Shown here one piece after another: positions 7,161 through 31,125 of a stretch of DNA of 64,000 nucleotides; the first letter of the stretch is position 1, and each line of letters starts with the position of its first letter. The notes under the pieces were generated by a model that saw only the letters and a program-made list of their open reading frames with translations, searched no databases and was not told the DNA's origin. The position numbers were made by a program, and so were the translations under genes. This DNA comes from an uncultured Alphaproteobacteria bacterium (GTDB lineage Bacteria > Pseudomonadota > Alphaproteobacteria > Dongiales > Dongiaceae): positions 345,465 through 409,464 of the forward strand of contig CAWKOG010000017.1 in the NCBI GenBank assembly GCA_963851215.1, written 5' to 3'.

Positions 7161-7271
7161 GACTCCTCCGCGGCGGCCGGGACCTGGATCAAGAGGGCGG
7201 AGAGTGTTGCCCACAACCGCGCGGAAGCACAAGAGCCTTAGCCGGGCCGCTGCCCGCAACACAGACGCCGA

Positions 7272-10042: not shown

Positions 10043-11712
10043 CTTATGTGAAGCTCGCCGGCGGCCGCATCTTCGATCCCGCCAATCGCCGCAACGATGT
10101 CACCGGCGATATCTTCATCCATGACGGCCGCATCGTCGCCGATCCCGGTCCCGGCGCGAAGATTGACAAAGTCATCGACATCTCCGGCCGCGTCGTGATG
10201 GCCGGCGGCATCGACATCCACAGCCATATCTGCGGCGGCAAGATGAACCTGGCCCGCACGCTGATGACGGCGGAACACCGCGAGCATCAGACGCCGGCCA
10301 CCGCCCTTACCCATGGCGGCAGCGGCCATATGACGCCGTCGGCGGCGATCACCGGCTACCGCTATGCCGAGATGGGCTATACCGCCGCCTTCGAGCCCGC
10401 GATGGTGGCCGCCAACGCGCGGCAGGCCCATGCCGAATTGGCCGACACGCCGATGATCGACAAGGGCTGCTATGTCGTGCTCGGCAACGAGGATGCGTTC
10501 CTGCGCATGCTGGCGGAGAAGGCGCCGCAAGCGGCCATCAACGACTATGTCGGCTGGATGGTGCAGGCGACCCAGGCCCTGGCGATCAAGGCGGTCAATC
10601 CCGGCGGCATCAGCGCCTTCAAATTCAATGGCCGCAATCTCGGCTTCGAGAGCGCGAGCCCGCATTACGGCCTGACGCCCCATCGCATCGTGACCACGCT
10701 GGCCCAGGCGGCGCGCGATCTCGGCCTGACCCATCCGCTGCATCTCCACTGCAATGATCTCGGAGTGCCCGGCAATATCGACACGACCCTGCAGACCATC
10801 GGCGCCGTCGACGGCCTGCCGCTGCATCTGACCCATGTACAGTTTCATGCCTATGGCACCGAGGGCGACCGGAAATTTTCCTCCGGCGCCGCGGCGATCG
10901 CCGAGGCCGTCAACAAGCGGCCGAACATCAGCATCGATGTCGGACAGATCATGTTCGGCCAGACCATCACCGCGTCGGCCGATTCCATGTCGCAACACCG
11001 CAACCACGCGCTCGGCCGGCCGCGCAAATGGGTTTGCATGGATATCGAATGTCAGGCCGGCTGCGGCCTGGTGCCGTTCCAGTATCGCGACCGCAATTTC
11101 GTCAACGCGCTGCAATGGGCGATCGGGCTGGAGTTGCTGTTGCTGGTGGAAGATCCCTGGCGGGTCTTCCTGACCACCGATCATCCGAACGGCGCCCCCT
11201 TCACCACCTATCCCCATCTCATCCGGCTGCTGATGGATCGCGACTTCCGTGACGACCGGCTGCGATCGGTCAACAAGCACGCCGCCGCCGCGAGCGCCTT
11301 GCGCAGCATCAAGCGGGAATATTCCCTGTCGGAGATCGCCATCCTGACCCGCGCCGGGCCGGCCCGCATTCTCGGACTTGCCGGGCGTGGACATCTCGGG
11401 CCGGGTGCCGCCGCCGATATCGTGGTCTACAGCGACCAGCCCGACCGCGAAGCGATGTTCGGCAAACCGGATTACGTCTTCAAGGACGGCCGGCTGGTCG
11501 TGCGCGACGGGAAGCTGATCGAAGTCACCTGGGGCGCCACCCATGTCGCCCGTCCCGCCTTCGATGGCGCCATGGATCGTCAGATGGGCGCCTATTTCGA
11601 GCGTTTTCAGACGATCCGCAGCGCCAATTTCCGTGTCGCCGACGGCGAGATCGAGGACGTTGCCGGCGGCCGCCTGGTCAAGCATGCACCGGCGGGAGCC
11701 CGCGCGTCGTGA
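10039..11712 (+). CDS. fhcA: formyltransferase/hydrolase complex subunit A (amidohydrolase, FwdA homologue)
   Basis: 557 aa. Metal-dependent amidohydrolase motifs (GGIDIHSHICGG). 4-nt overlap with fhcB. Confidence 0.9.
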   Translation: MTYVKLAGGRIFDPANRRNDVTGDIFIHDGRIVADPGPGAKIDKVIDISGRVVMAGGIDIHSHICGGKMNLARTLMTAEHREHQTPATALTHGGSGHMTPSAAITGYRYAEMGYTAAFEPAMVAANARQAHAELADTPMIDKGCYVVLGNEDAFLRMLAEKAPQAAINDYVGWMVQATQALAIKAVNPGGISAFKFNGRNLGFESASPHYGLTPHRIVTTLAQAARDLGLTHPLHLHCNDLGVPGNIDTTLQTIGAVDGLPLHLTHVQFHAYGTEGDRKFSSGAAAIAEAVNKRPNISIDVGQIMFGQTITASADSMSQHRNHALGRPRKWVCMDIECQAGCGLVPFQYRDRNFVNALQWAIGLELLLLVEDPWRVFLTTDHPNGAPFTTYPHLIRLLMDRDFRDDRLRSVNKHAAAASALRSIKREYSLSEIAILTRAGPARILGLAGRGHLGPGAAADIVVYSDQPDREAMFGKPDYVFKDGRLVVRDGKLIEVTWGATHVARPAFDGAMDRQMGAYFERFQTIRSANFRVADGEIEDVAGGRLVKHAPAGARAS

Positions 11713-12605
11713 AGATCAACGGCGTCGCCATCGACGATACCTTTGCCGAAGCCTTCGGTATGCGGGCGACGCGTCTGATCATCACCGCCGACACGCCGGG
11801 TTGGGCGCAGACTGCGGCGGCGAGCCTCTGTGGCTTCGCAACCTCGGTGATCGCCTGCGGCTGCGAAGCCGCTATCGAACGCGAACTGCCGCCGGCCGAG
11901 ACGCCGGACGGACGGCCCGGTATCGCCGTGTTGATGTTTTCCATGTCGCTCGCAGATCTGCAGAAGCAGGTCCGCGACCGCGTCGGCCAAAGCGTGCTGA
12001 CGACGGCGGGCTCGGCCTGCTATTCCGGGATCGACGGCGAGGAGGCGGTCAAGATCGGCGGCGCCCTACGCTATTTCGGCGACGGCTTCCAGATCGCGAA
12101 GAAGGTCGGCGACCGGCGTTTCTGGCGCATTCCCGTGATGGATGGCGAGTTCGTCTGCGACGATCGTGCGGGCGTCGTGAAGGCCGTCGGCGGCGGCAAC
12201 ATCCTGATCGTAGCAAAATCGCGGGCCGCAGCGCTGGAGGCGGCAGAGCGCGCCGTCGCCGCCATGCGGAAGTTGCGTGATGTCATTCTGCCGTTCCCCG
12301 GCGGCATCGTCCGCTCCGGCTCCAAGGTCGGATCGAAGTACAAGGCGCTGGTCGCCTCCACCAACGATGCTTATTGCCCGACGTTGAAGGGCCAGACGGC
12401 GACGGCGCTTCCGCCTGAGGCCGCGTCGGTGCTGGAGATCGTCATCGACGGCCTGACGCCTGAGTCCGTGCAAGCGGCGATGCGCGCCGGCATTGCTGCC
12501 GCCTGCGGCGTTGGCGCTGCCGGCGGCATCATCAATATCAGCGCCGGCAACTACGGCGGCAAGCTGGGCAAGTTCCAGTTCCCCTTGCGGGAGATCATGG
12601 CGTGA
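11709..12605 (+). CDS. fhcD: formylmethanofuran:tetrahydromethanopterin formyltransferase (Ftr)
   Basis: 298 aa, MKINGVAIDDTFAEAFGMRATRLIITA… Ftr family. Overlapped starts and stops with fhcA and fhcC. Confidence 0.85.
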   Translation: MKINGVAIDDTFAEAFGMRATRLIITADTPGWAQTAAASLCGFATSVIACGCEAAIERELPPAETPDGRPGIAVLMFSMSLADLQKQVRDRVGQSVLTTAGSACYSGIDGEEAVKIGGALRYFGDGFQIAKKVGDRRFWRIPVMDGEFVCDDRAGVVKAVGGGNILIVAKSRAAALEAAERAVAAMRKLRDVILPFPGGIVRSGSKVGSKYKALVASTNDAYCPTLKGQTATALPPEAASVLEIVIDGLTPESVQAAMRAGIAAACGVGAAGGIINISAGNYGGKLGKFQFPLREIMA

Positions 12606-17714: not shown

Positions 17715-18686
17715 ATGAGTTACAAATTACGCACCACCGCCATTGCCGCGGCGCTCGCGGCGGCCGTGATGGCGGGTGGGGGCAGCCCGGCGACGGCGGC
17801 GGCGCCGGAATCGTCTGACCCCATCAAGATCGCGCTGTTCGATTGGACCAGCGTGAACATCAACGCCAACATCCTCGGCGGCATCCTGAAGCGGCTCGGC
17901 TACAATGTCGAATACGTCCCGGCGGACTACATTTCCAGCATGACCACCGGCCTGACGACCGGCGACATCACCATCGCCCTGGAGTATTGGGATACGACGG
18001 CCGGCGAAGCCATGGCGGCCTCCGATGCCACCGGAAAGACGGAGCGTCTCGGCGCGCTCGGACCGAAGGCGAAAGAGGAATGGTGGTATCCCCTCTATAT
18101 GAAGGACAAATGCCCGGGCCTGCCGAACTGGGAAGCGTTGAAGGATCCAGCCTGTGCCGCGGCCTTCGCGACGCCGGATACGGCGCCGAACGGCCGCTAC
18201 CTCGGCGGCCCCGTCACCTGGGAAGGCTTCGACGACGAGCGGGTGCAGGCGCTGGGCCTGCCCTTCACGGTCATCCATGCCGGCACCGATGCGGCGATGT
18301 TCGCCGAGCTGGCCTCCGCCATCGAGCGCAAGGCGCCGATCATGATGTGGATCTACTCGCCCCACTGGGCGCCCGCGAAGTATGAAGGCGAATGGGTGGA
18401 GTTCCCGGAACACACGCCGGAGTGCTATACCGACCCGGCTTGGGGTTCCAACAAGGACATGGCGTATGACTGCGGCAAGCCCTTCGGCGAGATCTGGAAG
18501 TATTCCTGGATCGAGCTGAAGACCAAGTGGCCGGTCGCCTACAACGTGGCGAAAAACTACAGCATGGACGCCAAGGAATTGGGTCTGTTGGGCGGCCAGG
18601 TCGACCTCGACGGCAAGACGATCGAGGAAGTCGCGGAAGCCTGGATCGTCGCCAACGAGGCTAAGTGGCAAGCCTGGGCGAAATAG
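17715..18686 (+). CDS. proX: glycine betaine/proline ABC transporter substrate-binding protein (ProX/OpuAC-like)
   Basis: 323 aa, signal peptide (AAALAAAVMAGGG), Trp-rich OpuAC-type fold signatures. Confidence 0.8.
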   Translation: MSYKLRTTAIAAALAAAVMAGGGSPATAAAPESSDPIKIALFDWTSVNINANILGGILKRLGYNVEYVPADYISSMTTGLTTGDITIALEYWDTTAGEAMAASDATGKTERLGALGPKAKEEWWYPLYMKDKCPGLPNWEALKDPACAAAFATPDTAPNGRYLGGPVTWEGFDDERVQALGLPFTVIHAGTDAAMFAELASAIERKAPIMMWIYSPHWAPAKYEGEWVEFPEHTPECYTDPAWGSNKDMAYDCGKPFGEIWKYSWIELKTKWPVAYNVAKNYSMDAKELGLLGGQVDLDGKTIEEVAEAWIVANEAKWQAWAK

Positions 18687-18726
18687 GCCCACGGCGTAGT
18701 CTGCCTCAGTGTGTTTTGTTGACGGG

Positions 18727-18754
18727 TGAGCGGACGAGTTTTCGTCCGCTCACT
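18727..18754 (+). terminator. perfect hairpin between proX and proV (possible attenuator or partial terminator)
   Basis: GTGAGCGGACG-AGTTTT-CGTCCGCTCAC followed by TTCAATT. Could set binding-protein versus permease stoichiometry. Confidence 0.35.
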
Positions 18755-18771
18755 TCAATTGGTGTAAATCG

Positions 18772-19854
18772 TTGAATGGTATGATCCAGGCAGGGACGAC
18801 CGAGATCGCGCCGGCGCGGCCGGCCTCGCAGCCGGTCCAAATCGCTTGCCGCAATGTGTGGAAGGTCTTCGGCCGCAACGCCGAGGAATTTCTGCGCGGG
18901 CGGGCGGCAAATCCGACAGCCGACGAATTGGCAAGCGGAGACCTGATCGGCGCGGTGCAGGCCGTCAGCATCGACGTCCATCAAGGCGAGATCTTCGTCA
19001 TCATGGGCCTGTCGGGCTCCGGCAAATCGACGCTGGTGCGCTGCATGTCGCGGCTGATCGAGCCGACCGCCGGCGAGATCATCTTCGACGGCCGCGACCT
19101 GTTGAAGGCGACGGAGCGCGAGCTGATCGAGATCCGCCGCCACAAGATGGGCATGGTGTTCCAGCATTTCGCCTTGCTGCCGCATCAGACCGTGCTGGGC
19201 AATGTGGCGTTTCCGCTGGCGATCCAGGGCATCGACCGGGCGACGCGGGAGGCGCGGGCGCGCAAGATCATCGAGCTGGTCGGATTGAAGGGCCGCGAAC
19301 TCTATTTTCCGCGGCAACTTTCCGGCGGCCAGCAGCAGCGCGTCGGCATCGCCCGCAGCCTGGCGGTCGAGCCGGAGATCTGGTTCCTCGACGAACCGTT
19401 CTCCGCTCTCGATCCGCTGATCCGCCGGGAGATGCAGGATGAGTTCCTGCGCCTCCAGAACATGCTGCATAAGACGATCGTGTTCATCACCCACGATTTT
19501 GACGAGGCCATCCGGCTGGCCGATCGCATCGCCATCATGAAGGACGGCGCCATCATCCAGGTCGGCTCGCCGGAGGATTTGGTGACGCGGCCGGCCACCG
19601 ATTATGTGCGCGAATTCACCCGCGACGTGCAGCGTGCCAAGGTGATTTCCGCCCGCTCGCTGATGCGGCCTGCGGCGCCGGGCGGCCGCTATGCCAGCCA
19701 TGTGCAGGCCGGCGCGCGCATCGCCAGCTTCGCCGCGCAGATCGTGGCATCCGACCAGCCCTTCGGCGTCATCGGCGAGAACGGCCAGCTCGCCGGCGAG
19801 ATCCATCGCGACGCCGTGGTGGCGCTGCTGGCCGGGCGCGATCATCAGGCATGA
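18772..19854 (+). CDS. proV: glycine betaine/proline ABC transporter ATP-binding protein with C-terminal CBS region
   Basis: Walker A GLSGSGKST, LSGGQQQRV signature, Walker B IWFLDEPFSALD. Confidence 0.9.
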   Translation: MNGMIQAGTTEIAPARPASQPVQIACRNVWKVFGRNAEEFLRGRAANPTADELASGDLIGAVQAVSIDVHQGEIFVIMGLSGSGKSTLVRCMSRLIEPTAGEIIFDGRDLLKATERELIEIRRHKMGMVFQHFALLPHQTVLGNVAFPLAIQGIDRATREARARKIIELVGLKGRELYFPRQLSGGQQQRVGIARSLAVEPEIWFLDEPFSALDPLIRREMQDEFLRLQNMLHKTIVFITHDFDEAIRLADRIAIMKDGAIIQVGSPEDLVTRPATDYVREFTRDVQRAKVISARSLMRPAAPGGRYASHVQAGARIASFAAQIVASDQPFGVIGENGQLAGEIHRDAVVALLAGRDHQA

Positions 19855-21845
19855 GCGCAGCGACGGCCATCGGCAGCGCCCCGCGACCGGCCATCCGGCC
19901 TTGGCCGCTGTTCTGGCTGGCGGTCCTGGCGGCGACGATCATCCTGGTCGCGTTCCGAGAACAGCTGCAGCCGCTGTTCCCGCAGCTTTTCGACTACCCG
20001 CGGGCCTGGATCATTCCGGTGGCGAACTGGACGACGATCTTCATGCGCGACGTCGTCATCGAGTATTTCTTCACGATCACCCGGGCTTTCTCGGAAGTCT
20101 TGAGCCTGCCGCTGCAGCTCTCCTACGGGCTGTTCGACCGCGGTTTCACCTTCGGCAATGGCGCGGAAGCGGTCACGATCCCGCCGCTCTCCTGGGTCGG
20201 CGTGGTGGCCACGCTCGCGATCATCGGCCATGCCTATGGCGGCTGGCGACTGGCGCTGGTTGGCGGCTTGGGTTTCCTCTATCTCGCGGTATTCGGCCAG
20301 TGGTCCAGCGCCATGCCGACGATGGCAATGATCGTTATCTCCGTGCCTCTCGGAGTCCTCATCGGATTGTTGTTGGGAATCCTCGGCCACCGGCACCCGC
20401 GTTTCAACAGGGCGGTGCTCGTGCCGACGCTGGACATCGCCCAGGCGACGCCGCAATACGCCTATCTGGTGCCGATCCTCATGCTGTTCGGCAACAACCC
20501 GGTGTCGGCGATGATCGCCACGCTGGCCTTTGCCGTGCCGCCGATGGTGCGGGTGACGACGCTGGCGCTCGGCCAGGTGCCGGGCGAAATCCAGGATTTC
20601 GGCAACATGGCCGGCTGCACGCGCCGCCAGCATCTTTGGCGCATCCTCGTCCCGTCGGCGCGGCCGACGCTGATGGTGGGCGTCAACCAGGTCATCAACA
20701 TGACGCTGAACATGGTGATCATCGCCTCGATGATCGGCGCCGGCGGCCTGGGCTTCGACGTACTGACCGCGCTGCGGGCACTGAAGATCGGCCCGGCGCT
20801 GGAGGCCGGCATCGCCATCGTCGTGCTGGCGATCGTGTTCGACCGCATCAGCCAGGCCGCCGCGGCTCAGCCGCCGGGCATGCTGGTGCCCGGCCTGCCG
20901 TTCTGGCGCCGGCATCCCCACATCCTGCTGGCGGTCGCCGCGCTGCTGTCGACGACGCTGCTGAGTCTCTTCCTGCCCGCGCTGCGCGTGTTGCCGGACA
21001 GCGCCACGATCTCGACCGGCGCCATCTGGCAGTCGGCGATTACCTGGATCAACGTCAATTTCTTCGACTATATCGAGGCGGTGCGGGTGTGGCTGGTGCT
21101 GAACATCCTGCGGCCGGTGAAGGACTTCCTGCTCACCCTGCCCTGGATATTTGTCGTCGCCGTGCTTGGTGCGGCGGGTTATCAGCTCGGGCGCTGGCGG
21201 CTGGCGCTGGGGGTCATGCTGACGACGATGTTCTTCGCCGTCACCGGACTCTGGGATATCACGATGACGACGATCTACCTGGTTGCCGTTTCCAGTGTCA
21301 TCGCCGCCATGATCGGCATCCCGCTGGGCATATGGGCGGCGCGCAACGACCGGGCCGACCGCGTCCTGGCTGTTATCGTCGACATCCTGCAGACAATTCC
21401 CGCCTTCTGTTATCTGATTCCCGCGGTCATGCTGTTGCGGGTCGGCGATGTCGCCGCCATGCTCGGCATTGTCCTCTATGCCGTAGCACCGGCCATCAGA
21501 TACACGCGGCACGGCATCCGCCGGGTCTCGCCGCAACTGATCGAGGCCGGCAATGTATCCGGCTGCACCCGCTGGCAGCTGCTATGGCGCATCCAGCTGC
21601 CGCTGGCCCTGCCGGAGATCATGCTGGGCATCAACCAAGTGGTGTTCCTGGCGCTGTCCATGGACATCATCGCCGCCATGGTCGGCACGTCGGATCTCGG
21701 TCAGGAAGTGTTCAAGGCCCTGTCTAAGGTCGACGCCGGGCGCGGCTTGATGGGCGGCCTTGCCGTTGCCTTCATCGGCATCATCGCCGACCGGCTGATC
21801 AGCGCCTGGAGCCAACGGGTGAAGGAACGCTACGGCCTCGCCTGA
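19851..21845 (+). CDS. proW: betaine-type ABC transporter permease, duplicated/fused ProW-like (664 aa)
   Basis: Two tandem permease modules each with an EAA-like loop region. 4-nt overlap with proV. Confidence 0.8.
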   Translation: MSAATAIGSAPRPAIRPWPLFWLAVLAATIILVAFREQLQPLFPQLFDYPRAWIIPVANWTTIFMRDVVIEYFFTITRAFSEVLSLPLQLSYGLFDRGFTFGNGAEAVTIPPLSWVGVVATLAIIGHAYGGWRLALVGGLGFLYLAVFGQWSSAMPTMAMIVISVPLGVLIGLLLGILGHRHPRFNRAVLVPTLDIAQATPQYAYLVPILMLFGNNPVSAMIATLAFAVPPMVRVTTLALGQVPGEIQDFGNMAGCTRRQHLWRILVPSARPTLMVGVNQVINMTLNMVIIASMIGAGGLGFDVLTALRALKIGPALEAGIAIVVLAIVFDRISQAAAAQPPGMLVPGLPFWRRHPHILLAVAALLSTTLLSLFLPALRVLPDSATISTGAIWQSAITWINVNFFDYIEAVRVWLVLNILRPVKDFLLTLPWIFVVAVLGAAGYQLGRWRLALGVMLTTMFFAVTGLWDITMTTIYLVAVSSVIAAMIGIPLGIWAARNDRADRVLAVIVDILQTIPAFCYLIPAVMLLRVGDVAAMLGIVLYAVAPAIRYTRHGIRRVSPQLIEAGNVSGCTRWQLLWRIQLPLALPEIMLGINQVVFLALSMDIIAAMVGTSDLGQEVFKALSKVDAGRGLMGGLAVAFIGIIADRLISAWSQRVKERYGLA

Positions 21846-21922
21846 CCGCCGCAATTGGAACCTCGCGGCGAGGCCCGCATTGAATTTCCAGTGATGGAAA
21901 GCAACCGGCAGCGAGGTGTTCC

Positions 21923-22237
21923 ATGCCCCGGGGCGACAAATCGGCTTATACCGACAAACAGAAACGCCAGGCGCGTCACATCGAGAAAGGCTATGAGAAG
22001 CAGGGCTTGTCCGAGGACGAGGCCGAGCGCCGCGCCTGGGCCACGGTGAACAAGATGACCGGCGGCGGCAAGAAGAGCGGATCCGGCGTCGGCAAGCCGG
22101 TCAATAAAGCCCCGGCGCGCAAGGGCGGCCGGCTGGGCGGCAAGGCCGCCGCGGCGCGGCCGGCCGCGGAACGGTCGGCTTCGGCCAGGAAAGGCGCGGC
22201 GACGAGGGCGCGGCGGCAGCGGCGCGGGCGGGGTTAG
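21923..22237 (+). CDS. small basic Lys/Arg-rich protein (stress-protein-like, often annotated plasmid stabilization protein in rhizobia)
   Basis: 104 aa MPRGDKSAYTDKQKRQARHIEKGYEKQGLSEDEAERRAWATVNKMTGGGKK…, a conserved-looking N-terminal domain plus a basic low-complexity tail. GGAAC-N16-CATT lies 60 nt upstream (imperfect EcfG-type promoter). Confidence 0.5.
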   Translation: MPRGDKSAYTDKQKRQARHIEKGYEKQGLSEDEAERRAWATVNKMTGGGKKSGSGVGKPVNKAPARKGGRLGGKAAAARPAAERSASARKGAATRARRQRRGRG

Positions 22238-22383
22238 GCGCTGCCAAACGGGCGAATGCGGCATGTCGCCGCCCGGCTATGTCGTTGCAACTCGCTGCCT
22301 TGCCGCATGCCTGGGCGGACATTTTTGCACTATTTTCCGCCGCTGAAGTATCTCACCGGACATGACAATTTACTGATAAGCGG

Positions 22384-22499
22384 GATTCCCGGGGGACCCT
22401 GAATTTCGGGAACGATGCCATACAAGGGAATCCCGCCGCGTCCGGGCACTCTCGCCGGATGCCATAATCCGATACACAATGTCCAACATCGAGGCCGCC
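22384..22499 (+). ncRNA. conserved ~120-nt intergenic element, copy 1 (candidate cis-regulatory RNA or dispersed repeat)
   Basis: Two blocks, GATTCCCGGGGGACCCTGAATTTCGGGAACGATGCCATACAAGGGAATC and ATGCCATAATCCGATACACAATGTCCAACATCGAGGCCGCC, are 93-96% identical to 62313..62441. The GC-rich segment between them differs in sequence but can form a hairpin in both copies. Flanking GATTCCC/GGGAATC pairing is conserved. Confidence 0.3.
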
Positions 22500-22797
22500 A
22501 TCACTGGCTGCGGAACAGACAGGTGGGAGCGCTGGCGGCGAGGTTCAAGGAAAATTATCCTGTCCCTGACGATCCCTTTCCGGCCGCTATGTAGGTGGCT
22601 GCGGGAGGTGACGCCTCGCCCTCACCCGTTCCGCAGGCTAAGCGACAGGCGTGCCTAACTCTTTCGAATGGCAACGAAATTCCTGTCACCGCCAAGCGCC
22701 GGAACAAAATTCCGGGATCGTACATTGTTCAGTTTGGGTCGCAGGATGCCGCGCAGACGCATCCATCAGGGCAAGCAGGCGTAGCAGCTTGGATAGG

Positions 22798-23154
22798 ATG
22801 GCCCCGATGAACACGGACAATCGCCTTATTGCTTCTTCTTCCATGACAATGCTCGCCGGCCTCGCGGTGATTGCCGTGCCGATCGTTCTCGACACGCAAT
22901 CGGCCGAGGCCGGCACAATTTATTGCGGCGCGCGGCCGGATGTCGTCGAACTGTTGGCGAGTGATTTTCGCGAGCAGCCTTCCTCCGTTGGCGTAACCGG
23001 CGATGGGCGGTTGCTTGAGGTGCTCACAAACGAGGACGGCGCGACTTGGTCAATCGTCTTGACGGACAGCCGCGGCCAGAGCTGCATCGTCGCCACTGGT
23101 GAAGGATGGCAGAACCGCAAGGTGGATCCGGTCATGCTCGAACCGCAGCTCTAG
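22798..23154 (+). CDS. small secreted protein (signal peptide), first gene of the ExbB/ExbD-like module
   Basis: ATG 22798 or 22807 after GGATAGGA. MAPMNTDNRLIASSSMTMLAGLAVIAVPIVL… signal peptide, then a ~90-aa mature domain. Confidence 0.5.
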   Translation: MAPMNTDNRLIASSSMTMLAGLAVIAVPIVLDTQSAEAGTIYCGARPDVVELLASDFREQPSSVGVTGDGRLLEVLTNEDGATWSIVLTDSRGQSCIVATGEGWQNRKVDPVMLEPQL

Positions 23155-23166
23155 GGGCGTTCGATC

Positions 23167-23751
23167 ATGACCATTGCGAACTTCGAAGCGCCGGCCGAGG
23201 ACGAACCCCGGGACGCCGACTGGTATCGAGGGGCCATCGATGCGGCACGCAGCTCCACCGCGAGCACACAAATCGGCGTACAGCCCGACCCAAGAGTTGG
23301 CGATATCGCAACAGCACGCGCCGCATCTTTGGATGCGGCGTTTCTTTCGCGCTTCATCGTTCTCCAGGCCATCGGTGCCTCATTCGTCACGGCATTGTGG
23401 ATCGCCGGCGTCGCGACCCGTCCTTTCGAGGGCGCGACCGCGGCACTCTGCTGGATCATCGTCGCGGTCGGCAGCGTCGGCGTTCTCTGCACCCTCCTCC
23501 AGCGCTGGCGTGACGTGCAGTGGATCGCCACGCATGTAGTGCGCATCGGACTGCTGGGCACCGTCGTCGGCCTGATCATCGCCTTCTCCGCGGCGCGCGA
23601 CAGCGGCGGCGCCGATGTGAATGGGGTGAAAGCCATGATCTCGGCCGTCGTGGACGGGATGTATGTCTCGCTCTACGCCACGCTTCTGGGGATCGGCATC
23701 AATCTCTGGCTCAAGATCAATCTGCGTCTGCTCGGCAACAGCGATGGATGA
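23167..23751 (+). CDS. MotA/TolQ/ExbB-family proton-channel protein (short, 194 aa, 4 TM)
   Basis: C-terminal GLLGTVVGLIIAF…ISAVVDGMYVSLYATLLGIGINLW matches the MotA/TolQ/ExbB channel signature. Confidence 0.65.
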   Translation: MTIANFEAPAEDEPRDADWYRGAIDAARSSTASTQIGVQPDPRVGDIATARAASLDAAFLSRFIVLQAIGASFVTALWIAGVATRPFEGATAALCWIIVAVGSVGVLCTLLQRWRDVQWIATHVVRIGLLGTVVGLIIAFSAARDSGGADVNGVKAMISAVVDGMYVSLYATLLGIGINLWLKINLRLLGNSDG

Positions 23752-24331
23752 GGAGACGCTCACCGTCTGGCTGGACACGGCGCTGCTGATGCTCGGCGGC
23801 TTCGTGCTGATGACGGTGCTGATGATGACCGTTGTCAATCCGCCGGCCAAGTCGGCGGAACAAGAGGGCGATCGAGCGCCCGGCAACGTGGTCATTGAAG
23901 CTCAATGGCAGGATCGGCTCGACGCCGATGTGGATTTGTGGGTGGCGGCGCCCGGCGATACGCCAGTGGGCTACTCCAACAAGAACGGCCGCGTATTCAA
24001 CCTGCTGCGCGACGACCTCGGCATGGCGCAGGATATGACCGATGTGAACTACGAGATCGCCTATAGCCGCGGCATGCCGGCCGCCGAGTATGTGGTCAAT
24101 GTGCATCTCTACCGGGTTATCGGCTCCACCGGTCCGATCGAAGTGAAGCTGATCGCGAGCCGGCGGACCGACGAGGCGGGCCAGACGCAGCAGCTCGCGT
24201 CCACCACCGTCCGGTTGCTGCATCTTAACGACCAGGTGACCGCCTTCAGGTTCGATCTCGATAGCGACGGCGACCTGGTTCCCGGCAGCATGAATACGCT
24301 GTTCAAGGAATTGCGCGTGGCCTCGCAATGA
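23744..24331 (+). CDS. ExbD/TolR-like membrane-anchored periplasmic protein (atypically long periplasmic domain)
   Basis: ATG 23744 overlaps the previous gene by 8 nt. N-terminal TM (TVWLDTALLMLGGFVLMTVLMMTV), then a ~150-aa soluble domain. Confidence 0.5.
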   Translation: MDEETLTVWLDTALLMLGGFVLMTVLMMTVVNPPAKSAEQEGDRAPGNVVIEAQWQDRLDADVDLWVAAPGDTPVGYSNKNGRVFNLLRDDLGMAQDMTDVNYEIAYSRGMPAAEYVVNVHLYRVIGSTGPIEVKLIASRRTDEAGQTQQLASTTVRLLHLNDQVTAFRFDLDSDGDLVPGSMNTLFKELRVASQ

Positions 24332-24816
24332 TCGCCACCGCCATCATTTTCGCATTGCTGCTGGGCGGATTCGTGTTCCGCGTCCTGCCACAAGGTGTCA
24401 TGTGGCAACGTGGCGTGTCGGCGGCCCTGTTCTTGCTGTTGGTTGGGCTCGTCTATGGCGGCGCGGTCGAGCTGCTGGGCCAGCCCAAACCGATGCGGCT
24501 TGAGTGGCGCGGCGGGGCCGAGGAAGCCGATGTTCTTGGCGCCTCGATGGCGGAGGGCGAAGCGATCTACGTCCTGCTGCAGTATCCCGACGGCATGCCG
24601 CCGCGATACTATCAGATTCCCTGGTCGCAACCGGCCGCGGAAGCGCTGCAGCAGGCACTGCGGGACGGCCAGGAACAGGGCACCGGCGTCAAGATGACAA
24701 TGGCCGACGGACCGGGCGGTCAGCCCGGCAACGACACGCGCGAGCCGATGTTCTACGCCCCGCCCCAGGCGGCCCTGCCGGACAAGAACTACAGCGCGAA
24801 TCTTTCGTCGAACTAG
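24328..24816 (+). CDS. small membrane protein with Pro-rich C-terminal tail
   Basis: 4-nt overlap with the previous gene. Two N-terminal TM helices. Confidence 0.5.
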   Translation: MIATAIIFALLLGGFVFRVLPQGVMWQRGVSAALFLLLVGLVYGGAVELLGQPKPMRLEWRGGAEEADVLGASMAEGEAIYVLLQYPDGMPPRYYQIPWSQPAAEALQQALRDGQEQGTGVKMTMADGPGGQPGNDTREPMFYAPPQAALPDKNYSANLSSN

Positions 24817-25320
24817 AGACCAGCCAAAGTTGAAAGTGCCGCATTGAATGTCCTCTGTTTCCGTCGTACGGAAACGAGGCGGCAGTGTTCATGTTCGGTC
24901 ACCGGCGCCGGTCTAACAGAGACCGCGCCGACGAATGTCGGCCAGGCAAGCCGACCAGGAGCTATAGTTGCCGAACTATCTGCAGACCTGTTAATATTCC
25001 TTAATCACTGACCAAATTTTGCCACGCAGAACCGACGAATATTGTGCCCAAATAAGTAATTATTATGCGCCTGCTGCCGGCGCACGATAACTCGTTGGTA
25101 CTGTTGATAAATTTTACTTTGAATGAGACAGACTCGGCGCAGGCGGCAACTGCCGCATGTGACAATACTCACAGTAGATTTTGAATACTCGGCGTTCATT
25201 CCGCCTTTAATCAGCAGTGATCTGCGGGCCGCAGCCCGGTGGGCCAGACTCTGCATCTAAGTCCGGCCCTCAGAATAGATCCGCTGAAGTGCGCGAACAC
25301 TCGACGAACGAGAGCGCATC

Positions 25321-26439
25321 ATGACACTGAGCCTGACAATCACTGGTCAATCGGACTCCAAGCTCAAACTGGCTTGGCGTGACGATGAGCAGTCTTTCAG
25401 CCCGGCGCCCTATTGCGTCGGCCAGAACATTGTCCTGGATGCCAGCAAGCAAGTCCGCGACGTGCTGACCAGGATAAGCACGCACTATCGCACGTCCGAC
25501 GCGCCGAGCTATGCCGCGTTTCTGCCAGAGCTGTCGCAACGCGGTATCGAGCTCCACGAGTCGCTCTTTCTGCCCATTGAATTGGGTCAGAGCGACGCGG
25601 ATGAGGTGAAGGATTACATAGCAGACTTATCGGCCCGGGAAGCGTTGACCATCTACTCGGATGCAAGCGCGCACGTGCCCTGGGGCTTCGTGTTTCCGGG
25701 GCCGGAGGCGATCAGGAGCGAAGATGCCGTCGGCTCAATTGTCGACTTCAAGGACTTCTGGTTGTCCCGCTTCTGCATTGCCACGAGGTTCAGCAAGACA
25801 TCGCACCTGAAGGATGAAGTCCGGAGCCGGACAAATTTTCGGGTCCTCTATGTGCTTCACAAGGACGCCTTTCAGAAAGCACGGAGCCAATTGGCGCCGC
25901 CAGACCAGCTTTGCCTGGACCGGCTGATCGCAGAGGATGCGGCGAACGCCGTGGATTGGAACTCGGCCCGCGACAAGTGGCGCGCGATCGCGGAAAACGA
26001 CAGCATCATCTACATCTTCGGCCACTCGAACGGGCAGGAGATCGCTCTCTCGGACGGTGATGAACCTCATCACCGCCTGAGCGCCGGCGCATTTCGCAGC
26101 TCGTTCAAGAAGAAGGGAACCAGGTCCGCCACGATCTGCTTCACCAACGGATGCTGGACAGCGGCAGGGCACAAGGACCAGAGCTTCCTCACGGCGACGG
26201 CGCTGCCGGGATTTCATGGATTCATCGGCAGCGAGGCCGAGGTCTCCAACGAATTCGCGACGCGGTACGGCCTGGAATTCATGCGCGACATCTGCGACCG
26301 CGGTTGTTCGATCCAGGAGACATTCGAGCACCTGCGGCAAGAGCTCTTTCCCTTGAGCCTCCTCTACTCCTGCTTCGCGCACGGAAAATTCCGGATCGAG
26401 CCACGCGCGGCACCGGCGAGTCAAAGCAATGCGGCGTAG
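25321..26439 (+). CDS. CHAT-domain (caspase-like cysteine protease) protein
   Basis: 372 aa. His motif IIYIFGHSNGQEIAL and Cys motif ATICFTNGCWTAAG, followed by GFIGSEAEVSNEFATRYGLEFMRDICDRG. This is the CHAT His/Cys dyad layout. The gene follows a 470-bp AT-rich spacer and has lower GC than its surroundings. Confidence 0.75.
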   Translation: MTLSLTITGQSDSKLKLAWRDDEQSFSPAPYCVGQNIVLDASKQVRDVLTRISTHYRTSDAPSYAAFLPELSQRGIELHESLFLPIELGQSDADEVKDYIADLSAREALTIYSDASAHVPWGFVFPGPEAIRSEDAVGSIVDFKDFWLSRFCIATRFSKTSHLKDEVRSRTNFRVLYVLHKDAFQKARSQLAPPDQLCLDRLIAEDAANAVDWNSARDKWRAIAENDSIIYIFGHSNGQEIALSDGDEPHHRLSAGAFRSSFKKKGTRSATICFTNGCWTAAGHKDQSFLTATALPGFHGFIGSEAEVSNEFATRYGLEFMRDICDRGCSIQETFEHLRQELFPLSLLYSCFAHGKFRIEPRAAPASQSNAA

Positions 26440-27832
26440 CGCGGCCCAGAAAAGGTCTCCCGATATCGGGACACCGCCCGCGACCGGCGCATGGCCTGCG
26501 GAACCCTATCTCGGCATGAATTTCTACACAGCGGCCGAAGCACCCCTGTTTGGAGAGCGCGATCAGGAGATAGAGCAATGCGCGGCGCTGGTTGGTGAGT
26601 TCTCGACTCGATTACTCGTCCTGCAAGGGAAAAGCGGTACGGGGAAATCCTCATTCCTGCGGGCCGGCCTGATCCCAAAGCTGGAGCAGCAGGGCTCTCC
26701 TTTCTACTTCCTGCGAGCGGAGAAAGGAAACGCCGAGCCCACTTTCGTTCGGTGCACGGACGATCCCGTGAGCCGAATCCACGCGCTTCTGGTGTCCGCG
26801 CTCGAGAACGATCCACAGCTCGGACGGCTTCCCATCGGCTTCCGGCAAGCAGTCGGAGAATTGCTCGCATCCGCGGCGTCAGACGATCGAGTTGATACAG
26901 CGGCCGCCATCCTCAAGGTACTCGCCGTGCTTTCAGAAGGTCTGCCGCAAACGCTGGTGCTGATCATCGATCAAAGCGAGGAAATACTGACCCTGCAGAC
27001 ATCGCGCGATCCGAACAACCGGCGCAAGGCGTTCTTCTATCTGCTCGAGGAACTTTGCCTGCGCAGTCTTGACGTCAGGGTCATTGTTGCGCTTCGAACC
27101 GAGTTCTGCGGCCGTTTCTATGACGCCTTTGGCATCAATCCCAGCCTCAGGGTCACATCGGACGTGCGCGCCGGTCTCGAGCAATTCATGCTCGGCGCAT
27201 TGCCGCGGGAAGGAATTGTCGCGGCGATCCTGCGGCCAACGCTGGCGACACCGATCGAAGGCTATGGCGTCCCGCGGGAACAATACCGATTCAAGTACGG
27301 CGAAGGCGTGGCCGAACACATCGCGGAGGATCTGCTCAGCCATTGCGGCGACTCCAGCACATTGCCGGTCCTGCAAATCGCCTGCAAGGCGCTCCACAAT
27401 CAAGTGGTCATCGGGAAGAAATGCCCGAAGATCACGATCGAACACTACAAAGCCCTTGGGGGCGTCAAAGGGCGAGTCGACGCATATATCGACGACGTCT
27501 TACGGGGTGCGCTGCAGGAAACCGGCGCAACTTCAGTGAGTTCCCGCCGACCTCGTTCGCTGGCGCCGGGTATTGGCAACATTGGCCGCGCGGCAAGAGG
27601 GGAATGCCGTAACCACCCTGATTCGCGCGGAGCACGACATCGTCAACGAGGCGGACCGGCAAGAGCTCCGCGGCGACATTCCAAGGATCTTGAAAACACT
27701 TGCCAAGCACAAGTGGCGGCTTTTGAGATCCGTCATAGGCGGTACAAACGGGGCAGCCCGTCAGTACAGCCTCGGTCACGATGCGCTTGCTGTTGCGTTA
27801 CTCAAATGGGACGAGGCGCAGCAGGGCCTTGA
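26429..27832 (+). CDS. STAND-type P-loop NTPase, N-terminal segment (the last ~95 codons are out-of-frame junk)
   Basis: PYLGMNFYTAAEAPLFGERDQEIEQCAALVGEFSTRLLVLQGKSGTGKSSFLRAGLIP (Walker A) and LVLIIDQSEE (Walker B), typical of STAND NTPases that pair with CHAT proteases. After …ALQETGATSVSS the frame turns Arg-rich nonsense, while frame 0 becomes protein-like from 27540. Confidence 0.65.
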   Translation: MRRSAAQKRSPDIGTPPATGAWPAEPYLGMNFYTAAEAPLFGERDQEIEQCAALVGEFSTRLLVLQGKSGTGKSSFLRAGLIPKLEQQGSPFYFLRAEKGNAEPTFVRCTDDPVSRIHALLVSALENDPQLGRLPIGFRQAVGELLASAASDDRVDTAAAILKVLAVLSEGLPQTLVLIIDQSEEILTLQTSRDPNNRRKAFFYLLEELCLRSLDVRVIVALRTEFCGRFYDAFGINPSLRVTSDVRAGLEQFMLGALPREGIVAAILRPTLATPIEGYGVPREQYRFKYGEGVAEHIAEDLLSHCGDSSTLPVLQIACKALHNQVVIGKKCPKITIEHYKALGGVKGRVDAYIDDVLRGALQETGATSVSSRRPRSLAPGIGNIGRAARGECRNHPDSRGARHRQRGGPARAPRRHSKDLENTCQAQVAAFEIRHRRYKRGSPSVQPRSRCACCCVTQMGRGAAGP

Positions 27833-28496
27833 AAGCGCAGAGAGGGAACGCCTCGGCGCGCGCCGGAAGCTGCAAACCTATTCTCTCGCGTTCCTCTGCT
27901 TGTTGCTGTTTATCGTTGGCTCCCTGCTTTGGAAAGAAGGCACGCAGACGGTCGACCGGAGTGAAAGGCTGATCGAGTTCTCGAATGTCGAACAGGGCGG
28001 CAATTTCAGACTGAGGATACAGCTGCTGCTGAGCGCGCTGGCTCTTTCAGATGGGCTTTGGAGCCCATTCATAGATGGCGAGAGAGCCCGCAGCGAACTG
28101 ATCGCCGCCCTTGCGGTTTCGCCCATCCTTGCCGGCCAGGGAGTAGCGGTCGGGCTGAATGACGAGGGAACCAGGATTGCGGTACTTCGAGACGAGTCGG
28201 CGTTCGTTGTCGATCTTGAACGTGACAACAAGGAAGAAGTATCGACCTTCAAATTTGTGCCTGGCGAGGTTCTCGAAGCATTCAGGCAGCACCTGCCTGC
28301 AATCGGCTTTGTCTCCGGCATGGCGGCGCCGGTTGTATACGATGCGGGATATCTGTACTGGAACTCCGGTACGGCGGGATCAACGCAAATCCAGGAACTT
28401 TCACAGGACATCAGAGAGTTCTCAGAATCTGGGATTTTCGCCTGTGGGGTTTGCATCCGGCTTTGTGCAAGTGCTGATCTCCAATCGCCCCAATGA
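27573..28496 (+). CDS. middle segment of the same STAND gene (helical region with one TM-like stretch); probably not an independent gene
   Basis: Frame 0 is protein-like from 27540 (…WRRVLATLAARQEGNAVTTLIRAEHDIVNEADRQELRGD…) with no ATG. The only possible starts are weak TTGs. It ends in short junk after 28430, where frame 1 becomes protein-like. Confidence 0.4.
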   Translation: MATLAARQEGNAVTTLIRAEHDIVNEADRQELRGDIPRILKTLAKHKWRLLRSVIGGTNGAARQYSLGHDALAVALLKWDEAQQGLESAERERLGARRKLQTYSLAFLCLLLFIVGSLLWKEGTQTVDRSERLIEFSNVEQGGNFRLRIQLLLSALALSDGLWSPFIDGERARSELIAALAVSPILAGQGVAVGLNDEGTRIAVLRDESAFVVDLERDNKEEVSTFKFVPGEVLEAFRQHLPAIGFVSGMAAPVVYDAGYLYWNSGTAGSTQIQELSQDIREFSESGIFACGVCIRLCASADLQSPQ

Positions 28497-29382
28497 GACT
28501 GAGAATTGGATCAAGGTCCTCCGCGTAACGCCTCAAATGATTCAGAATGGCTCTCTCCCGAGTTCGACCAGGATTAGCTGGAGGGGGCCACTTTCCTGGC
28601 CGATCATTTCGACGCAATCAGACAAGTTTGCCTACGTGGGCAATTCTCGCGAGCAGGAAATATACAACAGCATCATGCTTTCCTCGCTGTCCGATCCAAC
28701 GCTTGTCTCGCTTGTCTACGGCTTGCCGAGTATGCGAAGCAGCGGTTTCGACCCATCCATTTCGCTGACTTTCGCCAACTCGGGGAATTCGCTGATCGTT
28801 CGCGACACTCGAGAAACACTGAGGATTTTGCCATCGGCGCAGGACCGGCGGGCCCGGCTCCTTGCACGAGCCGCTCCGGTTGTTACGATTCCGGAGGGGC
28901 TGCGGGACGATCCCGTTCAGCCGCGCCGGCTAACGATGCGGCCACTCCTCGCCGCGGCAAAAATCGACAGCGAATGGCGATTTGCATGGTTGACGGAAAA
29001 CGGAATTGCCGTGATCAGAAGCGAGGCGAGCGACCCAGAGAATGCGCAGCCGGTCGTTGACGCAAGACTTCTCACGGGAGCCGCCGACCTGGCGAACGCC
29101 TTCAAGCTGAGTTTCAGCAAGGACGGGCGCTTTCTTGTAGTGCTTCTGCGCTCGCGCATGCAGCCGCAGAGCCGGCAGCGCGGACCGATGCGGTACCTGG
29201 TCTGGGATCTCAATTACAGCAAGGCCGATCTTCGGAATGCGACCAATCAGGAGTTGCGCGACAAAGCCTGCGCCACAGCCGCGCTCGACAAGGCGGAGGC
29301 GCTTGTCACGCCCGTCGAGAAATTCGTCTGGTTTCACGACTCGGCGCTGCCCTGCGGCGAACCTCCCACCGCAGCGCCCTGA
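28159..29382 (+). CDS. C-terminal beta-propeller (WD40-like repeat) segment of the same STAND gene
   Basis: From about 28430, frame 1 shows repeated blade-like units (FAYVGNSREQEIYN, ISLTFANSGNSLIVRDTRETLRI, WRFAWLTENGIAVIRSEAS, AFKLSFSKDGRFLVVLLRS, MRYLVWDL). Upstream of 28430 this frame is junk. Confidence 0.45.
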   Translation: MTREPGLRYFETSRRSLSILNVTTRKKYRPSNLCLARFSKHSGSTCLQSALSPAWRRRLYTMRDICTGTPVRRDQRKSRNFHRTSESSQNLGFSPVGFASGFVQVLISNRPNETENWIKVLRVTPQMIQNGSLPSSTRISWRGPLSWPIISTQSDKFAYVGNSREQEIYNSIMLSSLSDPTLVSLVYGLPSMRSSGFDPSISLTFANSGNSLIVRDTRETLRILPSAQDRRARLLARAAPVVTIPEGLRDDPVQPRRLTMRPLLAAAKIDSEWRFAWLTENGIAVIRSEASDPENAQPVVDARLLTGAADLANAFKLSFSKDGRFLVVLLRSRMQPQSRQRGPMRYLVWDLNYSKADLRNATNQELRDKACATAALDKAEALVTPVEKFVWFHDSALPCGEPPTAAP

Positions 29383-29386
29383 AGCG

Positions 29387-30466
29387 ATGACCGACTTCCT
29401 CGCCAGAATGGGGGGATTTGTAGAGAAGCTGCGTTCCAGCCCGATGCCGCTGCCGACGGTCTCGGAAATCGCCCATGATCGCTGCTTGCCATCAGGCGTC
29501 GCCGGCCGTGAGATCGTCAAGGACAATGGCTACTTTACGGTGTGGCTCAACGAGCTGTTCCTTGCGGAGGGGCGCAACTGGTGGGCAACTTACGACCCCG
29601 TCGCCATTGTCGTCACGGAATTCGGCTATGGCACCGGAAGAGTCTCGGTGCCGGTCATTGTCGGACCCAATCTCATTTCGGCAAAGAATCCCGGCGTCCC
29701 GCACGGCATTGTGCTCCGCGACACCTGCGTCGCCGGGCCATATCCCTTCCGCGGCGGCAATGTCGCGATTACCGTCATCCTGTACAAGGTGAAGCATCAG
29801 GACTATGCCCGCGGATTGCTGCGTTTCGTCGAGAGTCTTTCTTCGGCGATTGGAACGCCTGCCGACATTGGCATGCTGGCGAAGGTCGGGGGCACTGTCC
29901 TCGATGGCCTGGAGTCTCTGTTGAATCTGGGCGACACGGTGCCGGTGGCCGGCCACAGGATTGAGATCGACACGTCAACATTGAGCGGCTTCGTTTCCTC
30001 CTATACGGCGCTGATCGCCGAGCGCGATGTCGACATGTCGCAGCTTCGGGTCGAGGAACGACGGCTCCTGCTGCAACAGTCCGATGGGACGAACACGAGA
30101 TTCGAGAAGGCCGACTATGTCCTGTACAGCGTTCTCGGCCGGGAACGCCGGGGCGACGAGAGCACGTTGCCGTTCTATCGCGCGTTCTTGCAGGCTCGAA
30201 ATGCCGCCATGGTGAACAATCCGGACAACTGGAAGCGCGCCAAAGCGATGCTCCTGTCGATTTACGAGCAGATGGTCCTAAGCCCGGATCTTACGTTGCG
30301 GGAGGCCGACGCATTGTTTGACTCCTACCGCGAAGATCTGTTGGCCATCCGGAAGAAATCGCAGGCCGTACATGCCATGCCCCTGGGACAGGAGCCGCCC
30401 CGGCCCGACGCCAGGGAAACCCGCGTGAACAACGCCACCTCGGTGCTGGACCTGGAGCCAACCTAA
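29387..30466 (+). CDS. hypothetical protein, 359 aa, third gene of the CHAT/STAND islet
   Basis: ATG 29387 lies 4 nt after the STAND stop. No recognisable motifs. Lower GC like the two preceding genes. Confidence 0.55.
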   Translation: MTDFLARMGGFVEKLRSSPMPLPTVSEIAHDRCLPSGVAGREIVKDNGYFTVWLNELFLAEGRNWWATYDPVAIVVTEFGYGTGRVSVPVIVGPNLISAKNPGVPHGIVLRDTCVAGPYPFRGGNVAITVILYKVKHQDYARGLLRFVESLSSAIGTPADIGMLAKVGGTVLDGLESLLNLGDTVPVAGHRIEIDTSTLSGFVSSYTALIAERDVDMSQLRVEERRLLLQQSDGTNTRFEKADYVLYSVLGRERRGDESTLPFYRAFLQARNAAMVNNPDNWKRAKAMLLSIYEQMVLSPDLTLREADALFDSYREDLLAIRKKSQAVHAMPLGQEPPRPDARETRVNNATSVLDLEPT

Positions 30467-30550
30467 GCTCCGATGGCAGACAGAACGCGGGGCGCGGGGA
30501 GCCCGCACCCGGCGCCGGACGATGTACGACCGGCGCCGGCCTGATCAGAC

Positions 30551-30820
30551 CTAGCAGAGCACGCCGGATGACGGATCGCCGCAAGGACCCTCGCCGGTGT
30601 CGACGACGCCCGACTCGGCGTCGTTCAGAACCTTGGCGACCTTATCGGCCGCTTTCCTGCCCTTGGTGTGAATCGTGCCCGTTTCATCGTCGGTGACAAT
30701 GTAGCCCGGCCCCATCGGATCCTCGCGCACCACCCATTCGCCGGCCAACACGACGGCAGGCGCGGTGAGCGCATAGACCAGCCCGAGGAAGCTTGCACTT
30801 CTCGAAATGAGATTCGCCAT
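30551..30820 (-). CDS. small secreted protein, paralogue 1 (C-terminus …VDTGEGPCGDPSSGVLC)
   Basis: ATG 30820 with GGAGA RBS. Signal peptide MANLISRSASFLGLVYALTAPAVVLAGE. 89 aa. Confidence 0.55.
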   Translation of the reverse strand: MANLISRSASFLGLVYALTAPAVVLAGEWVVREDPMGPGYIVTDDETGTIHTKGRKAADKVAKVLNDAESGVVDTGEGPCGDPSSGVLC

Positions 30821-30849: not shown

Positions 30850-31125
30850 TCAGCAAAGCACGCCGGAGCTGGGATCGCCGCAGGGACCTTCGCCGGTGTC
30901 GACGAATTCCTTGTCCTTATCCAGCGCCTTGTTGACCTTCTTGGCGGTGCGTGTGGCTTCTTTCTCCGTGAGGTCCAGTGGAATTCTGTTATCACCCTCG
31001 CGAATGCCGTAGTGCGTGCCGTCGTCGGTATAGGCGCTCCAGGTTGCGAACGCCGCGCCGGGGAACACCGCAAGCGCCGCCACCAGAATGAGCGCCGGCA
31101 TGCCTGCGAACTTCATGAGTTTCAT
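30850..31125 (-). CDS. small secreted protein, paralogue 2 (identical 17-aa C-terminus)
   Basis: ATG 31125 with GAAGGAGGAGAAG RBS. Signal peptide MKLMKFAGMPALILVAALAVFPGAAFA. 91 aa. The last 17 residues and their DNA are near-identical to paralogue 1. Confidence 0.6.
   Translation of the reverse strand: MKLMKFAGMPALILVAALAVFPGAAFATWSAYTDDGTHYGIREGDNRIPLDLTEKEATRTAKKVNKALDKDKEFVDTGEGPCGDPSSGVLC

Follow-up and report, generated by a model that had tools for sequence, protein, structure and literature searches.

Within a 64,000-nt stretch of DNA (hereafter the window, meaning the whole stretch analysed) from an uncultured alphaproteobacterium of the family Dongiaceae (assembly GCA_963851215.1, contig CAWKOG010000017.1, positions 345,465 to 409,464), four neighbouring genes, g1 to g4, are read on the forward strand between positions 22798 and 24816. 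Three of these, g2-g3-g4 (the triad), form a module that is common to Alphaproteobacteria, often multi-copy and in housekeeping contexts, and to their temperate and lytic phages. The triad, here joined by g1, would constitute a minimal inner-membrane machine driven by ions, a 5:2 motor of the MotA/ExbB kind, a reading that we consider moderately probable with respect to the type of mechanism only. Motors of the proton-driven 5:2 type are at work in flagella, in TonB-dependent uptake, in the Tol-Pal system, in gliding, in type IX secretion and in Zorya defence, and with each new family another route by which energy reaches the envelope has come to light. A channel subunit cut to its membrane core (138–194 amino acids (aa)), together with a partner that carries a different conserved domain, makes an attractive minimal model, and g3 and g4 define families of thousands of members that are missing from Pfam, NCBIfam, PADLOC and PHROGs.

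The channel subunit, g2 (23167–23751, 194 aa), is by its sequence a short member of the MotA/TolQ/ExbB proton channel family, as had been proposed in an earlier reading of this DNA made from the letters alone (the sequence-only reading). It scores 30.6 bits against the Pfam profile MotA_ExbB (PF01618; E-value 3.1e-7; gathering cut-off 22.9), and the same cut-off is reached by 8 of 10 g2 homologues from phages and chromosomes. A profile built from 25 members of the g2 family gave weak matches in the PDB to ZorA (8vvn), MotA (8gqy), TolQ and ExbB chains. The best of these is the ZorA-type chain 8vvn, with which the third and fourth transmembrane (TM) helices and their connecting loop align without gaps. 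Scores against NCBIfam models lie far under the respective cut-offs, with 19.3 bits for the ExbB equivalog TIGR02805 (cut-off 135), 17.9 bits for ZorA_2 (cut-off 100) and 11.8 bits for ZorA_1 (cut-off 190), and matches to PADLOC ZorA (E-values of 1e-4 to 5e-2) are confined to the TM region.

The layout of g2 consists of a variable N-terminal tail of ca. 56 aa and four TM helices, with a positively charged cytoplasmic loop of ca. 14 aa between TM2 and TM3 and a C-terminal tail of ca. 8 aa. The cytoplasmic domain which in MotA, ExbB and TolQ is typically found between TM helices is missing. Phage versions comprise 138–157 aa in total, and distant chromosomal homologues are longer, with a TM2-TM3 loop of ca. 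60 aa and an additional C-terminal helix. The channel residues are distributed over two helices, G128, G131, T132 and G135 on one (GLxGTVxG motif) and T172 and G175 on another. Across 132 homologues G128, G135 and G175 are invariant and G131 is nearly so, while T172 is retained in 129; position 132 is Thr in 113 and Asn in 19.

The second component, g3 (23744–24331, 195 aa), is a B-type subunit that had been described as ExbD-like, a description which fits its membrane anchor but not the remainder of the protein. The N-terminal TM helix bears an aspartate, Asp11, close to the start of the helix, which presumably faces the cytoplasm, and this residue is retained in 133 of 135 homologues, chromosomal and viral. 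A conserved Asp on the N-terminal TM helix is a hallmark of ExbD, TolR, MotB and ZorB. Searched at E<=1, neither Pfam, the ExbD/TolR profile PF02472 included, nor NCBIfam gave a match to g3, and this profile also fails to match any of 51 members of the g3 family. PADLOC gave no match either, and no OmpA-like peptidoglycan-binding domain was found on g3 in any of these three collections, while g3 and g4 profiles searched against PDB sequences returned only noise. In the single-chain structure prediction, residues 3–30 form a helix, followed by a short linker and a beta-sandwich of ca. 150 aa, so the modelled fold differs from the ExbD-type alpha/beta fold. By analogy with the N-in TM orientation of ExbD, TolR and MotB, the beta-sandwich would lie in the periplasm.

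Conservation within this putative periplasmic part is high. Ten residues (W55, D62, D64, W66, P70, D90, N102, E104, N119 and T166) are invariant in all 135 homologues, falling largely within acidic and polar motifs (D62xD64LW, R89DDLG, N102xE104 and N119xH121), a pattern suggestive of a specific metal or ligand site. The invariant Asp/Asn/Glu cluster looks like a candidate Ca2+ or other metal site, or a ligand site, and the best fold matches of the model are Ca2+-binding, with a hint of a TerD-like beta-sandwich. Homology to TerD was rejected: Pfam PF02342 matches none of the 51 members, and hhalign against a TerD alignment gave a probability of 3.4%. TerD proteins are moreover soluble and reside in the cytoplasm, in contrast to g3 with its membrane anchor and its putatively periplasmic domain. 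DUF2135, which 1 of the 51 members matched at 1e-4 and on which there is no literature, was likewise set aside. The family itself is large, with 3747 homologues in a word-indexed search and 1272 clusters at 50% identity, almost all of them 190–215 aa long; across Dongiaceae the identity is ca. 70%.

The third component, g4 (24328–24816, 162 aa), is a two-TM hairpin protein with a small beta-rich domain (beta-beta-beta-alpha-beta) and a Pro-rich C-terminal tail, in which F142, P146, P151 and K153 are conserved (FYAxPQxxLPDK). According to the positive-inside rule its soluble part is probably periplasmic. PADLOC contains no match for g4.

These three genes behave as one unit, with strict co-occurrence, constant order and overlapping frames. 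A pattern scan, restricted to one genome per species, yielded 467 confirmed g3 relatives, of which the best 80 were used; four loci added individually brought the bacterial sample to 84 loci. In these, g2-g3-g4 keep the same order and strand, bar a few that are truncated at contig ends or frameshifted, and of the 85 sequences searched, the window included, 83 contained g2 and 82 contained g4. Carriers are mostly Alphaproteobacteria (Dongiaceae, Azospirillum, Skermanella, Mesorhizobium, Geminicoccaceae, Kiloniellales and Roseomonas), and several genomes hold two or three copies of the module. A search of plasmids gave matches on Azospirillum chromids only, in which the genes carry no annotation. 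A single 12.5-kb locus of an alphaproteobacterial metagenome-assembled genome (L036) contains at least two copies, at 5935–7771 and 11305–11943, with an extra g3-like match directly after the first g4.

Beyond g1, no conserved neighbour emerged from all-against-all clustering of the open reading frames (ORFs) that flank the bacterial loci. The 120 largest neighbouring ORFs of 16 diverse loci include ABC-transporter, amino-acid and redox-metabolism genes, and PADLOC recovered among them five families in seven family-member matches, mostly from one ‘mads’ cluster.

DNA of 63% G+C gives long chance ORFs on every strand, and for this reason a direct coding test was made, in which substitutions between the window and a 95%-identical relative (L005) were counted by codon position 1/2/3. 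The counts were 6/3/19 for g1, 5/4/27 for g2, 5/6/26 for g3 and 13/5/17 for g4, with 1/1/12 in the poorly conserved N-terminal 56 codons of g2. All four genes display a third-position bias and are therefore translated and under purifying selection; the four co-directional ORFs that had been described are real genes. Translational coupling of the whole set had also been suggested; the frames of g2 and g3 overlap by 8 nt (ATGGATGA) and those of g3 and g4 by 4 nt (ATGA), while g1 and g2 are close (12 nt apart) without overlapping. A scan of the locus found neither a sigma-70-like promoter nor a terminator after g4. In the variable N-terminal part of g2 there is a terminator-like hairpin (23318–23341), with a 10-bp stem followed by a T-rich tail, and DNA similarity to all more distant relatives begins at ca. 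23335, directly 3′ of this hairpin; the codon-position bias of the surrounding stretch still points to translation in the lineage of the window.

In the proposed machine g2, with its family membership and its conserved Gly/Thr helices, would form the channel ring, putatively a pentamer. The TM helices of g3 would sit inside this ring, presumably as a dimer in the pore, with the near-invariant Asp11 as the protonatable residue, and proton flow would move g3 relative to g2. As g2 is almost devoid of a cytoplasmic part, the machine would have to do its work in the periplasm, for which the beta-sandwich of g3 and g4 are the candidate output parts. The latter would serve as a membrane-anchored adaptor, an analogue of TonB or TolA without homology to either, and would extend its Pro-rich tail to an envelope target.

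Comparison with other motors of this kind places the module apart from them. MotA-MotB and PomA-PomB resemble it in the four-TM channel subunit, the conserved Asp on the TM helix of the partner and the match to MotA 8gqy, but the TM2-TM3 connection of g2 is only 14 aa and lacks the torque-generating domain, g3 has no OmpA-like domain, and no flagellar genes are found near the module. GldL-GldM and PorL-PorM likewise combine a small channel subunit with a partner of one TM helix and have a purely periplasmic output; the periplasmic part of GldM/PorM is built of beta-sandwich domains, to which the putatively periplasmic beta-sandwich of g3 would correspond. However, no profile search detected sequence similarity between these systems and the module, GldL has two TM helices and a cytoplasmic domain, GldM/PorM are much larger and multi-domain, and taxa and gene neighbourhoods differ.

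Carriage of g2-g3-g4 by many phages, both temperate and lytic, was missed by the sequence-only reading. Patterns derived from g3 match 53 IMG/VR contigs, ranging in G+C from 29% to 71%, and ca. 47 of the 53 hold the whole triad. Among cultured phages, which were searched by tblastn, the temperate carriers are Rhizobium phage 16-3 (p038 = g2, p040 = g3, p042 = g4) and its relatives. The triad is also present in the Sinorhizobium phages NV1.1.1 and AP-16-3. The lytic carriers are T4-like rhizobiophages, namely P10VF (P10VF_191-193), AF3, RL38J1, RL2RES, P9VFCI, the RHph_N34 group and RHph_I1_18. Presence of the triad in complete temperate and lytic phage genomes implies that phages install a motor of their own in the host membrane. 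Its role can be addressed in two tractable phage–host pairs, 16-3 on Sinorhizobium meliloti and P10VF on Rhizobium leguminosarum.

Location within the phage genomes is lineage-dependent. In 16-3-like genomes the triad lies 3′ of endolysin, holin and Rz-like spanin genes and 5′ of early genes, and in ca. 20 such viral loci it stands beside these lysis genes; in temperate phages it occupies the interval that separates the lysis genes from int/attP. In P10VF it is situated among topoisomerase, gp55-like sigma factor, gp46/47-like and clamp genes, and in low-G+C T4-like contigs it is found 3′ of neck and tail-sheath genes. Genes for RIIA/RIIB, primase-helicase, portal and small terminase are also seen beside it in viral loci, and clustering of the viral flanking ORFs gave lineage-specific neighbours only. 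With positions so varied, context does not fix the role. Directly upstream of the triad in nine viral loci of the 16-3-like lineage lies a gene for a periplasmic trypsin-like serine protease (phrog_9683), which in phage 16-3 is p036 (L138, 6625–7524) and which could be a lineage-specific functional partner of the triad. Two irregularities were seen. Phage 16-3 has small extra genes, p039 and p041, between the triad genes, and in NV1.1.1 (L139, 6261–6998) a 245-aa ORF, read by eye as GIY-YIG-type homing endonuclease-like, lies as an insertion between its g2-like gene and its g3-like gene. In a rough neighbour-joining tree the viral copies are more diverse than, and basal to, the chromosomal ones; as the bacterial side of this tree consists of close relatives, the best 80 of 467, no conclusion is drawn on the direction of transfer.

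Combining these observations, we tentatively put forward a fuller account, which we regard as possible. Here g2-g3-g4 would represent the first recognised phage-encoded family of MotA/ExbB-type 5:2 motors, made up of a minimal four-TM ring without a cytoplasmic domain, an axle whose periplasmic beta-sandwich binds metal, and an adaptor with two TM helices. It would be deployed in the host inner membrane for mechanical or gating work on the envelope, for example to exclude competitors or to control envelope integrity and lysis, and would have been domesticated by hosts in multiple chromosomal copies. A literature search on 16-3 p038-p042 and on phage-encoded MotA/ExbB-type proteins found no description of the triad, and no mention of it was found in recent surveys of 5:2 motors and force transducers, in which other new variants are described.

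A number of features weigh against the ion-driven machine proposed above. The 19 homologues in which T132 of the channel motif is replaced by Asn are viral. Neither g3 nor g4 matches any characterised family, their roles being assigned by topology and analogy, and g4 carries no TonB/TolA-type signature (no TonB_C match in Pfam and no fold match). The single-chain structure predictions are of moderate quality, with predicted local distance difference test (pLDDT) values of 69.5 and 72.8, and the most conserved loop of g3, residues 74–100, is the least confident part of its model. Furthermore, phage copies occupy differing regions, by lysis genes in 16-3-like phages and by early replication genes in P10VF, and the chromosomal copies show no enrichment near defence genes.

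With regard to biological role, an envelope-level function in phage infection is preferred, for instance to keep a second phage from entering or to control the integrity of the envelope. Three candidates are considered, in order of preference an exclusion or defence device, a housekeeping machine borrowed by phages, and a gated proton leak; the varied phage positions and the housekeeping contexts of the chromosomal copies do not discriminate among them.

Under the first candidate, a role within the mechanism set out above, the triad would be a superinfection-exclusion or anti-phage module in which the motor senses or resists a breach of the envelope and keeps the DNA from entering. Its MotAB-like unit would be a resemblance to Zorya, but it would act wholly in the envelope, without a cytoplasmic effector. 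We rate this specific role as doubtful, although phage carriage makes a role in defence possible. Temperate phages hold the triad between lysis genes and int/attP, a typical moron position, and lytic T4-like phages hold it among early genes, which is also where T4 keeps exclusion genes of its own. The gap-free alignment of TM3-loop-TM4 to ZorA 8vvn, the protease gene directly upstream in the nine viral loci, and an nSTAND islet inserted right by the module in the window also favour this role. On the other hand g3 and g4 have no PADLOC match, the ZorA matches of g2 are weak, no nuclease or other effector is present, and ca. 70% identity across Dongiaceae with stable synteny is unusual for defence genes. 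The defence setting that had been suggested for this locus is not borne out by the 16 diverse relatives, in which chromosomal copies sit among housekeeping genes, including those for transport and metabolism, with almost no matches to defence models nearby.

Zorya itself is a further point of comparison. The closest PDB sequence match of the g2 profile is ZorA-type, weak ZorA matches are found in PADLOC and NCBIfam, and both the module and Zorya are tied to phage biology. Nevertheless g2 has 194 aa, compared to 380–700 aa in ZorA, whose long cytoplasmic tail it does not have; a peptidoglycan-binding domain of the ZorB type is missing, as are ZorC, ZorD and ZorE effectors (g1, g3 and g4 have no PADLOC match), and in the case of the module the carrier is often the phage.

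The second candidate is a housekeeping envelope machine of Alphaproteobacteria, serving, for example, outer-membrane, peptidoglycan or cation homeostasis, which phages would have borrowed to keep the envelope working during infection. This we regard as unlikely, despite several features that agree with it: the neighbours are housekeeping genes and the synteny looks vertical, two relatives (L001 and L003) share the order cystathionine genes, entericidin, g1-g4, there are two to three paralogous copies per genome, purifying selection is strong, and the invariant acidic cluster of g3 is compatible with Ca2+ binding, as in its best fold matches. It is opposed by the lack of any conserved partner gene that would point to a pathway and by the greater diversity and basal position of phage copies in the rough tree, the latter a weak point given that the bacterial side comprises the best 80 of 467.

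As a third candidate, a plugged channel could open on a periplasmic cue and depolarise the membrane, thereby timing holin lysis or aborting infection. Unplugged MotAB leaks protons, and holins fire upon depolarisation. Such a gated leak would suit the ca. 20 16-3-like viral loci with the triad by endolysin, holin and spanin genes, as well as the missing cytoplasmic torque-generating domain of g2, but it appears quite improbable. T4-like phages hold the triad among early replication genes and not lysis genes, chromosomal copies are stable, multi-copy and conserved, which is not expected of a toxic leak, and the invariant, putatively periplasmic site of g3 together with a co-evolving g4 suggests a specific mechanical or ligand function.

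Finally, that the genes are no more than the exbB-exbD or tolQ-tolR pair belonging to a TonB or Tol system is refuted to the extent that we give it hardly any weight, for although g2 matches the shared MotA/TolQ/ExbB domain and, weakly, TIGR02805, and the order of channel, single-TM protein and third membrane protein mimics tolQRA and exbBD-tonB, g3 has a different fold and no ExbD/TolR profile match, g4 has two TM helices with neither a TonB_C nor a fold match, no TonB, TonB-dependent receptor, Pal or TolB adjoins the module in the window or its relatives, and the triad is present in phage genomes.

Likeness to ExbB-ExbD-TonB and TolQ-TolR-TolA extends to the conserved Gly/Thr helices of the channel domain, the single N-terminal TM helix of g3 with an Asp of the essential type, the Pro-rich segment of a third membrane-anchored protein, and the presumed periplasmic output. 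In contrast to these systems g2 combines four TM helices with virtually no cytoplasmic domain, g3 has its ca. 150-aa beta-sandwich in place of the ExbD/TolR fold, g4 lacks a TolA domain, and the module is phage-borne and without outer-membrane partner genes. TonB proper has a single TM helix, a conserved His and TonB_C, where g4 has two helices and no such domain. Neither the window nor the three called relatives (L001-L003) yielded a TonB, OmpA-like or Tol partner, no TonB adjoins the module in these relatives, and the TonB, Tol and OmpA families are absent among the 25 most recurrent neighbour families listed for the 16 loci. The module is neither the ExbBD of a TonB system or canonical Ton/Tol nor Zorya, in agreement with the sequence-only reading, which had also noted that TonB, Tol and MotB-type peptidoglycan-binding partners are lacking and had left open a conserved exbBD lying beside tonB in relatives.

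The first gene, g1 (22798–23154, 118 aa), encodes a small secreted protein with two conserved Cys residues and a signal-peptide-like N-terminus ending AEA|G. It had been counted as part of a four-gene module, but it is a clade-specific accessory and not core, since homologues directly upstream of g2 occur in only 14 of the 84 bacterial loci, those of the closest clade. In five viral loci g1-like genes are found 5′ of g2. The protein matches phrog_25396 (1.8e-16), a PHROG without functional annotation, and has no match in Pfam, NCBIfam or PADLOC. Translation may start at an alternative ATG, 22807, where Shine-Dalgarno spacing is better than at 22798. In two loci of Dongiaceae type, L001 (6817–6972) and L003 (6873–7034), a gene for an entericidin-like small lipoprotein lies directly upstream of g1, preceded by cystathionine beta-synthase and gamma-lyase genes.

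To the right of the module, the window departs from its close relative. L005 is colinear with 17741–24814 and picks up again at 30551, while the intervening 24815–30550, 5.7 kb of lower G+C that begins at the g4 stop codon, is absent from it; this segment is therefore an insertion and the module belongs to the backbone. The sequence-only reading had placed the module in the accessory stretch; it is instead conserved backbone, with a strain-specific nSTAND islet inserted next to g4. The insertion encodes an nSTAND1 NTPase (26429–27832) and several ORFs without a Pfam match, and no integrase was seen in it. Among these ORFs is the putative CHAT protein of the earlier reading (25321–26439).

The conserved leader element that had been placed upstream of the genes (22323–22512) is a dispersed intergenic repeat of ca. 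130–190 nt, with a second copy at 62250–62441. It does not travel with the module, and among module loci it is found only in the ortholog L005. The two copies in the window are 75% identical and share a near-identical core of 48 nt, and nine further copies (L143-L151) come from soil metagenome contigs, in which the element alone matches the window. Two conserved boxes, GATTCCnGGGGACCCTGAtTTynGGGAACGATGCCATACAAGGGAAT and ATGCCATAwyCCGATAsACAATGTCCAACATCGAGGC, are separated by a variable GC-rich hairpin. A known RNA family was considered and set aside, as an Rfam scan of 21800–25400 at E<=1 returned nothing and RNAalifold on six copies gave only two covarying pairs. The sequence is treated as a dispersed repeat, which may be a repeat element or a small RNA and is unrelated to the module. 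A different pair of repeat units, each of ca. 55 nt and ca. 300 nt apart, is located just right of the insertion boundary (30553–30607 and 30852–30905) and matches L005 at 7174–7227 and 7473–7527, with 87% identity in the cross-match.

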